Assembly (NCBI RefSeq): GCF_022846255.1
Contig: NZ_AP025682.1
Length of the DNA stretch: 64,000 nt
Reading direction: 5' to 3' (one strand)
Origin: Escherichia coli
Lineage (GTDB): Bacteria; Pseudomonadota; Gammaproteobacteria; Enterobacterales; Enterobacteriaceae
Shown: one piece after another, positions 37,913 through 39,694 of the stretch
Layout of the letters: each line of letters starts with the position of its first letter
How positions within the stretch are numbered: the stretch's first letter is position 1
The notes under the pieces: generated by a model
Database searches by the model: none
Seen by the model: the letters and a program-made list of their open reading frames with translations, nothing else
Told to the model about the DNA's origin: nothing
Position numbers and translations under genes: made by a program

Positions 37913-39694
37913 ATGAAAATGACTTTGCCGTTTAAACCCCATGTGCTGGCGCTAATTTGCAGTGCCGGGCTTTGTGCCGCCTCTGCCGGGCTATATATAA
38001 AAAGCCGCACAGTGGAAGCGCCTGTGGAAGCGCAATCGACACAACAGACTGCGCCTGACATCTCCGCAGTTACGCTTCCTGCAACGGTTTCCGTGCCTCC
38101 TGTAACACCTGCCGTCGTCAAATCCGCATTCAGCACTGCTCAAATAGATCAATGGGTTGCACCTGTCGCGCTATACCCCGACGCCCTACTTTCGCAGGTG
38201 CTGATGGCATCAACCTATCCGACAAACGTTGCGCAAGCAGTACAATGGTCGCACGATAACCCACTTAAACAAGGCGATGCTGCTATTCAGGCGGTATCTG
38301 ACCAGCCGTGGGACGCCAGCGTTAAATCACTGGTGGCCTTTCCACAATTGATGGCATTGATGGGCGAAAACCCGCAATGGGTGCAAAACCTGGGCGATGC
38401 TTTTCTGGCGCAGCCGCAAGACGTGATGGACTCGGTACAGCGATTGCGGCAACTGGCGCAACAAACCGGCTCGCTGAAGTCATCAACGGAACAAAAGATC
38501 ATCACGACAACGAAAAAAGTCGTACCGGTAAATCAGCCCGCCAACGCCCCTGCCACACAATCAAATACCGTTTCTACGTCCAGCCCCGTCGTCGCAGAAC
38601 CTGCACCGACAGTAATAGCCATTGAGCCAGCCAATCCGGATGTGGTTTATATTCCGAACTACAACCCAAACGTGGTTTACGGCAGTTGGGCCAATACCGC
38701 TTATCCGCCAGTTTATCTGCCGCCGCCAGCCGGAGAACCGTTTGTTGACAGCTTTGTGCGCGGATTCGGCTATAGCATGGGCGTTGCTACCACATACGCA
38801 CTATTCAGCAGCATCGACTGGGACGACGACGATCATGACCATCATCATCATGACGATCATGACCATCATCATCATGACGATGATGATTATCATCACCACG
38901 ATGGCGGTCATCGTGACGGTAATGACTGGCAACACAACGGCGACAACATCAATATCGACGTCAACAATTTCAACCGTATCACCGGTGAGCATCTTACTGA
39001 TAAGAATATGGCATGGCGGCACAATCCGAATTACCGCGATGGTATGCCTTATCATGATCAGGATATGGCAAAGCGGTTTCACCAAACCGATGTTAAAGGC
39101 GGAATGAGCGCCACGCCGCTACCTGCTCCAACACGCGACAGCCAGCGTCAGGCGGCAGCAAGCCAGTTTCAGCAACGAACACACGCCGCCCCCGTCATTA
39201 CGCGAGATACCCAACGTCAGGCAGCGGCACAGCGGTTTAATGAAGCTGAACACAATGGGAGCTATGACGACTTCCGCGACTTCAGCCGTCGCCAGCCACT
39301 GACCCAGCAACAAAAGGACGCCGCTCGTCAGCGTTATCAGTCGGCTTCTCCTGAGCAGCGCCAGGCGGCTCGCGAGAAAATGCAGACTAACCCACAGAAC
39401 CAGCAGCGAAGAGAGGCGGCACGTCAGCGTATTCAGTCCGCGTCGCCTGAGCAGCGCCAGGCGGTTCGCGAGAAAATGCAGACTAACCCGCAGAATCAAC
39501 AGCAAAGAGATGCAGCACGTCAGCGTATCCAGTCTGCCTCGCCTGAGCAGCGTCAGGTTTTTCGAGAGAAAGTTCAGGAGAGCCGCCCGCAGCGTCTAAA
39601 CGACAGTAACCATACTGCCCGATTGAATAATGAGCAACGGTCAGCGGTACGCGAACGGTTGTCTGAGCGTGGAGCAAGGAGACTGGAAAGGTAA
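37913..39694 (+). CDS. yacH: DUF3300-family secreted protein YacH with His/Asp-rich tract and Gln/Arg-rich C-terminal repeats
   Basis: ORF 37913..39694 (593 aa); signal peptide MKMTLPFKPHVLALICSAGLCAASA; low-complexity DDDDHDHHHHDDHDHHHHDDDDYHHHDGGH; repeated ARQRIQSASPEQRQAVREKMQTNPQNQQ units. Confidence 0.8.
   Translation: MKMTLPFKPHVLALICSAGLCAASAGLYIKSRTVEAPVEAQSTQQTAPDISAVTLPATVSVPPVTPAVVKSAFSTAQIDQWVAPVALYPDALLSQVLMASTYPTNVAQAVQWSHDNPLKQGDAAIQAVSDQPWDASVKSLVAFPQLMALMGENPQWVQNLGDAFLAQPQDVMDSVQRLRQLAQQTGSLKSSTEQKIITTTKKVVPVNQPANAPATQSNTVSTSSPVVAEPAPTVIAIEPANPDVVYIPNYNPNVVYGSWANTAYPPVYLPPPAGEPFVDSFVRGFGYSMGVATTYALFSSIDWDDDDHDHHHHDDHDHHHHDDDDYHHHDGGHRDGNDWQHNGDNINIDVNNFNRITGEHLTDKNMAWRHNPNYRDGMPYHDQDMAKRFHQTDVKGGMSATPLPAPTRDSQRQAAASQFQQRTHAAPVITRDTQRQAAAQRFNEAEHNGSYDDFRDFSRRQPLTQQQKDAARQRYQSASPEQRQAAREKMQTNPQNQQRREAARQRIQSASPEQRQAVREKMQTNPQNQQQRDAARQRIQSASPEQRQVFREKVQESRPQRLNDSNHTARLNNEQRSAVRERLSERGARRLER
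39323..39600 (+). repeat. Imperfect ~96-bp tandem repeat (about 2.9 copies) inside the yacH coding sequence
   Basis: Units beginning CGTCAGCGTTATCAGTCGGCTTCTCCTGAGCAGCGCCAGGCGG... at ~39323, 39419 and 39515; each encodes ~32 aa. Confidence 0.8.

Follow-up and report, generated by a model that had tools for sequence, protein, structure and literature searches.

YacH, a conserved and uncharacterised envelope protein of Escherichia coli on which hardly anything has been published and which is without a solved relative, carries near the end of its DUF3300 domain a tract of 30 residues made up almost wholly of histidine and aspartate. The tract is an ordinary coding minisatellite in a His-rich loop, two known kinds of element combined in one place. 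Its length differs between E. coli lineages by whole codons, and family-wide alignment identifies it as an expansion, in the Enterobacteriaceae lineage, of what is elsewhere a tight turn of four residues. The explanation favoured here is that the tract forms a disordered, slippage-variable loop and is a putative metal binder of low specificity; taken as a whole, we give this account an even chance of being right.

The window analysed is a stretch of 64,000 nucleotides of E. coli DNA, to which all coordinates refer. The list of open reading frames places the yacH coding sequence (593 aa plus stop) at 37913–39694 on the plus strand, flanked by acnB and lpdA on the minus strand, and the order acnB–yacH–lpdA is common to every E. 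coli record examined. The ORF shares 99.9% identity with yacH as annotated in E. coli Nissle 1917. In an hmmscan search, aa 75–341 (38135–38935, plus strand) match Pfam DUF3300 (PF11737) with an E-value of 4.7e-77 and a score of 259 bits against a gathering cutoff of 25, over profile positions 2–227 of 227, and the tract lies near the C-terminal end of the match. The initial annotation, which had assigned the tract to YacH as a DUF3300 protein, is borne out by both the Pfam match and the identity to the Nissle 1917 gene. No family in NCBIfam is matched by YacH, and scans for sigma-70 promoters and terminators gave hits at chance level. Two ORFs that cross the tract in other frames (38622–39107 on the plus strand and 38801–39085 on the minus strand) encode I/M/T/V runs, which arise simply from the repetition of the codons, and were not taken as genes.

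A low-complexity His/Asp tract had been reported at 38818–38915, and it is present there in both the DNA and the encoded peptide, with a few spare bases on each side. The tract proper, DDDDHDHHHHDDHDHHHHDDDDYHHHDGGH, comprises aa 304–333 (38822–38911, plus strand), 30 codons in frame with the yacH ORF. In order, these codons are (GAC)3 GAT CAT GAC (CAT)4 GAC GAT CAT GAC (CAT)4 GAC (GAT)3 TAT CAT (CAC)2 GAT GGC GGT CAT. They encode 14 His, 13 Asp, 2 Gly and 1 Tyr, and the tract thus holds 14 of the 24 His residues of the whole protein. The composition is non-random: against an assumed proteome-like background of 2.3% His and 5.2% Asp, the binomial tail is ~1e-15 for at least 14 His in 30 residues and ~1e-27 for at least 27 Asp plus His. 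Within the tract, Tandem Repeats Finder reports 2.8 copies of a 24-nt unit, GACGATCATGACCATCATCATCAT, encoding DDHDHHHH (38828–38895, plus strand; score 115, 93% matches, 0 indels). Directly before the tract is the codon of Trp303 (38819–38821, plus strand). The expanded loop as a whole runs over aa 304–345 (42 residues) and is closed by the conserved NINIDV strand at aa 345–350 (38945–38962, plus strand), for which the family motif is [VI]N[IV][ND]VN(R/N)(Y/F)N.

The wider family shows what the loop has grown from. An alignment of 60 DUF3300 sequences has 22 invariant columns, one of them W303, with Trp in every row. DUF3300 proteins from outside the Enterobacteriaceae share with YacH the domain, this invariant Trp and the [VI]N[IV]NVN strand, but differ in what lies between the last two. 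In most non-enterobacterial representatives the spacing is exactly four residues, typically G-[H/G/R]-[G/N]-D, whereas in enterobacterial proteins it is 20–42 residues of D/H/Y/G/N, the YacH of the window being at 42. It is this difference that marks the tract as a lineage-specific expansion of the turn. Independent His/Asp expansions at the same position occur in a few unrelated lineages, e.g. in the representative proteins P0132 and P0173. Some of the outside relatives differ in gene context too. A DUF2950 gene follows directly on the DUF3300 gene in one such locus (L037, 107–2614), and in another (L036, 4968–7439) the DUF3300 gene is followed by a gene cut off by the contig end; E. coli yacH is without a DUF2950 partner.

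An AlphaFold2 run on the 60-sequence alignment gave a mean pLDDT of 73.6 and a confident helical domain at residues 75–184 (pLDDT ~95). Strands are predicted at 299–301 and 346–349, with coil between them. From about residue 310 onward the pLDDT drops to values under 50, with ten-residue block means of 48, 46 and 43 over 311–340, and it climbs again from ~69 to 82 through the stretch of the NINIDV strand. The tract is accordingly modelled as a disordered coil. A Foldseek search of the YacH model against the PDB returned no match with E <0.3, and a phmmer search of the PDB found no solved relative. The sole phmmer matches were the engineered FLAG/His tags of recombinant receptors (residues ~300–354, E 0.009 to 1), which resemble the tract in composition only, as synthetic FLAG (DYKDDDD) and poly-His tags would, and are not homologous to it.

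Which side of the membrane the loop faces bears on any function. Windows of 19 residues with a Kyte–Doolittle mean of at least 1.6 are confined to aa 9–30 of YacH (37937–38002, plus strand), and beyond this segment none exceeds 1.3. AlphaFold2 places a helix at aa 9–28, and an A-S-A/G motif can be seen by eye at aa 23–26, so that the segment is a candidate signal peptide or membrane anchor. Since the only strongly hydrophobic segment is this N-terminal helix, YacH, called secreted in the initial annotation, is probably exported or anchored by its N-terminus, with its bulk extracytoplasmic. A second transmembrane segment at aa 283–301, the glycine-rich GFGYSMGVATTYALFSSI, would place the tract in the cytoplasm; it is unsupported for YacH, as no 19-residue window there reaches a Kyte–Doolittle mean of 0.8, the listing threshold.

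The initial annotation had suggested that the repetitive codons are prone to slippage and that tract length may vary between strains. Comparison across E. coli genomes confirms the variation, from −39 to +24 nt, but the changes separate lineages, keep the frame and are clonally stable, and do not amount to rapid switching. With SSIDW and NGDNI as the anchors between which length is counted, the window allele has 38 residues and corresponds, codon for codon, to the 30-residue allele of strain SCU-485 plus an exact tandem duplication of 24 nt. The K-12 allele also has 30 residues, with a single D replaced by N, alleles of K-12 length having one 24-nt unit fewer than the 2.8 copies of the window. 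The ST131 allele has a 6-nt CATGAC duplication (32 residues), the allele of one strain lacks one CAT (29 residues), and another allele has a 39-nt deletion flanked by CATC microhomologies (17 residues). Overall, the tract ranges within E. coli from 17 to 39 residues between the anchors.

The frequencies of these alleles were estimated from two evenly spaced (quantile) sets of 60 complete genomes each. Among the 120 genomes, 98 have the K-12 length (~82%), 12 the +6-nt form (~10%) and 5 the −39-nt form (~4%); the remainder comprise one each of −3, −6 and +24 nt and two disrupted genes. Every intact allele sampled differs by a multiple of 3 nt. The window allele is found in 80 of 5,416 complete E. 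coli genomes, including Nissle 1917, CFT073, ABU 83972 and ATCC 25922: 80 genomes match a 401-nt query from the window at ≥99% identity, and among the matches listed 60 of 60 are identical (100%) and of the same length. The same allele, unchanged, is carried by many laboratory derivatives, those of Nissle among them. Nissle 1917, CFT073, ABU 83972 and ATCC 25922 belong to ST73, and the extra 24-nt copy is the duplication of that lineage. Identity bands agree with the sampled frequencies: the band that the ST131-type allele occupies comprises 602 genomes, and that of the +24 allele 80. At the protein level, the 120 best E. coli/Shigella cluster representatives, which over-sample rare variants, hold at least 30 tract variants of 23–39 residues, all in frame; in some a DDDDYHH(H) unit is duplicated, and in others single His residues have been gained or lost. 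Within groups whose flanks are nearly identical there are as many as five variants of the tract, and the DDHDHHHH duplication occurs on several flank haplotypes, which argues for recurrent indels or intragenic recombination. The tract is, then, a coding VNTR, with an in-frame unit whose copy number varies between strains. It shares with the envelope-protein VNTRs used in MLVA the tandem units of 3n bases, the lineage-variable copy number and the intact frame, although it is not among the published E. coli/Shigella MLVA loci checked.

In 27 enterobacterial orthologs, from genera including Escherichia, Salmonella, Atlantibacter, Raoultella, Kluyvera, Buttiauxella, Yokenella, Franconibacter and Dryocola, 'IDW' is followed by a run of Asp and then by His clusters, Tyr and Gly. 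Of 29 loci fetched, 27 had loop boundaries that could be located, and all 27 retain a loop of at least 16 residues that opens with a D-run and an H-cluster. NAY codons (GAY, CAY, TAY, AAY) make up 77% of the enterobacterial loop codons, and across the 27 species GAT is mixed with GAC and CAT with CAC while D and H are kept, i.e. third positions turn over. The gene as a whole is under purifying selection, with a dN/dS of 0.10–0.14, and for the tract the comparison of K-12 with E. albertii gives pN 0.052 and pS 0.405, although from small numbers. Residues kept while third positions change, together with a pN far below pS, argue for some constraint on tract composition. Mutation bias may also contribute: the codons of D, H, Y and N lie one first-base change apart, and mutation could thus partly maintain the composition.

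The preferred mechanism for the loop, already suggested in the initial annotation, is the binding of divalent metals, to which we lean tentatively and at slightly less than even chances. Clusters of the HxH, HHHH and DH kinds are classical metal ligands, and by analogy with a natural His-tag, binding by the tract is chemically plausible. On this account, the four-residue turn after the invariant Trp was expanded in the Enterobacteriaceae into a His/Asp loop written almost entirely in NAY codons. These codons make up short direct repeats, at which codons are gained or lost as whole units through slippage during replication or through unequal recombination. Examples are the +24 nt of the Nissle/CFT073 lineage, the +6 nt of ST131 and the −3, −6 and −39 nt found elsewhere. 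Since purifying selection acts on the protein downstream of the loop, E. coli retains only those changes that keep the frame. In the envelope the loop would act as a multivalent ligand of low specificity for divalent transition-metal ions (Zn, Ni, Cu, Co), and a change in copy number would alter its capacity without acting as an on/off switch. If metal binding is true, it would give a first functional handle on DUF3300 in enteric bacteria and add a protein with a natural 'internal His-tag' to the periplasmic metal binders. A stronger version, in which the expansion was adaptive and supplies a periplasmic metal-buffering or metal/pH-sensing module for Cpx stress and antimicrobial-peptide sensitivity, tuned by copy number (e.g. 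through the extra DDHDHHHH of Nissle/CFT073), strikes us as quite improbable.

The nearest parallels are the loop of ZnuA and the N-terminus of ZinT, flexible His-rich segments with a presumed role in taking up divalent metal or passing it on. What YacH has in common with them is a flexible, disordered, species-variable segment rich in His and Asp (or Glu) in an exported Gram-negative protein, export being probable for YacH; 14 His in 30 residues, in a coil in the model, make a His-rich flexible segment of this type. In ZnuA and ZinT, however, there is a defined metal site outside this segment, and both are members of the Zur regulon, whereas YacH lacks a recognisable metal-binding domain, shows no Zur box in a consensus scan and has no recognised fold relative. 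The SlyD tail, HypB, UreE, Hpn, the RcnA loop and the CDF loops have the same HxH/HHHH/DH chemistry and low complexity, but all are located in the cytoplasm or on its side of the membrane, and their genes lie in metal-related operons; yacH is solitary between acnB and lpdA. Signs of metal-responsive regulation were not found: in a consensus scan of the 354 bp upstream, no Fur-, Zur-, NikR-, RcnR-, CueR-, CusR- or ZntR-like box rose above the window background. The best box is Fur-like (13/19), a score equalled or bettered by 44 sites in the window, and the other regulators have tens to hundreds of such sites. This best match is an inverted repeat, GGTGAT-A-ATCACC, at 37783–37795 in the 354-bp acnB–yacH intergenic region. 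A search of a literature library for yacH, DUF3300, b0117, P36682 and STM0157 found no link to metals or localisation; besides the Salmonella pseudogenes described below, that library ties yacH only to CpxR and to survival of protamine.

The main rival is that the tract is a tolerated low-complexity (NAY)n expansion of a permissive turn, without specific function, kept rich in D, H, Y and N by slippage and first-base mutation and selected for frame alone. We regard this as somewhat unlikely, though much is consistent with it. The turn is of four residues in the wider family, which works with it, so the loop must be dispensable for the core function. The loop is modelled as disordered, spans 17 to 39 residues within E. 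coli and has 77% NAY codons; ~4% of the sampled E. coli genomes lack 13 of its residues, which counts against its importance; and the upstream region has no metal-regulator site in the consensus scan. The gene itself is dispensable in places, being a pseudogene in several S. Typhimurium strains and disrupted by IS1 in one E. coli strain. Yet a neutral tract should decay or vanish in some genera, and the loop of at least 16 residues with its D-run and H-cluster is kept in 27 of 27 enterobacterial orthologs despite extensive turnover at third positions; the low tract pN relative to pS between K-12 and E. albertii, small as the numbers are, points the same way. A minor alternative, which we think rather improbable, makes the loop a charge or pH switch or a polyanionic site: with a charge of about −13 at neutral pH, neutralised below about pH 6 by its 14 His, it would sense periplasmic acidification or bind polycations such as antimicrobial peptides. 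Residues 302–340 do combine a net charge of −15 with the 14 His, and the expansion is confined to the Enterobacteriaceae among the sequences sampled for this point. In addition, yacH is reported to be regulated by CpxR and repressed by protamine, and a delta-yacH strain to survive protamine better (PMC9600279). That phenotype, however, is one of the gene as a whole, its direction is a 'sensitising' one, and the pKa argument comes from general chemistry alone. Consensus scans for CpxR, PhoP and BasR boxes upstream of yacH gave none above the window background.

A last reading would make the tract a contingency locus, in which frameshifting repeat indels switch YacH on and off. An 8-bp deletion (GATCATCA, Asp284fs) makes yacH a pseudogene in S. 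Typhimurium 14028s, UK-1, D23580, SL1344 and a milk isolate (PMC3391293, PMC10048834). As the tract of the S. arizonae ortholog starts at residue 280, this deletion falls within the homologous tract, which is the place of yacH pseudogenisation in S. Typhimurium. Against this reading, all intact E. coli alleles sampled differ by multiples of 3 nt, the repeat units of 3, 6 and 24 nt preserve the frame, and the window allele is unchanged across Nissle, CFT073, ATCC 25922 and many laboratory derivatives. Alleles that stay in frame and are stable within clones are not those of phase variation, and this reading is disfavoured; we consider it very improbable indeed. The metal-binding loop remains the preferred reading.

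Other disruptions of yacH were seen in the collected loci. In E. coli CUWW06 (L006, 487–1184) the gene is split by IS1 and annotated as two partial pseudogenes, and in E. coli E69 (L012, 3001–4179) the ORF is cut short at 392 aa. Two of the representative proteins, P0122 and P0145, have been translated out of frame, so that the tract is read as I/M/T runs.

A second in-frame array lies in the C-terminal helical region at 39326–39557 (plus strand), where TRF finds 2.4 copies of a 96-nt (32-aa) unit with a score of 352. The unit reads …QRIQSASPEQRQAxREKMQTNPQNQQ…, and K-12 YacH has one more of these 32-aa units (617 versus 593 aa). Variation in both in-frame repeats, the His/Asp tract and the 32-aa units, accounts for the range of YacH lengths in E. 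coli, from 584 to 662 aa. The two length-polymorphic repeats mark E. coli lineages and are also sites at which assemblies and variant callers will report indels. The C-terminal repeat was considered as the MLVA locus ms11, which has a 96-bp unit, and rejected, the published ms11 primers being absent from the window.

The yacH gene is unusually divergent within E. coli. Compared with K-12 the copy in the window has a dS of 0.29 and a dN/dS of 0.135, and most E. coli genomes are only ~90% identical to this copy, a figure that counts gaps. This divergence may come from low codon bias, old alleles or recombination. Across the aligned tract codons (38822–38935), the window and K-12 show 0 synonymous differences at 13 synonymous sites, with a pS of 0.23–0.38 in the flanks, all from small numbers; repeat homogenisation or a constraint at the DNA level are possible causes. 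Unlike its divergent neighbour yacH, lpdA encodes a protein whose accession is identical in all E. coli records examined.
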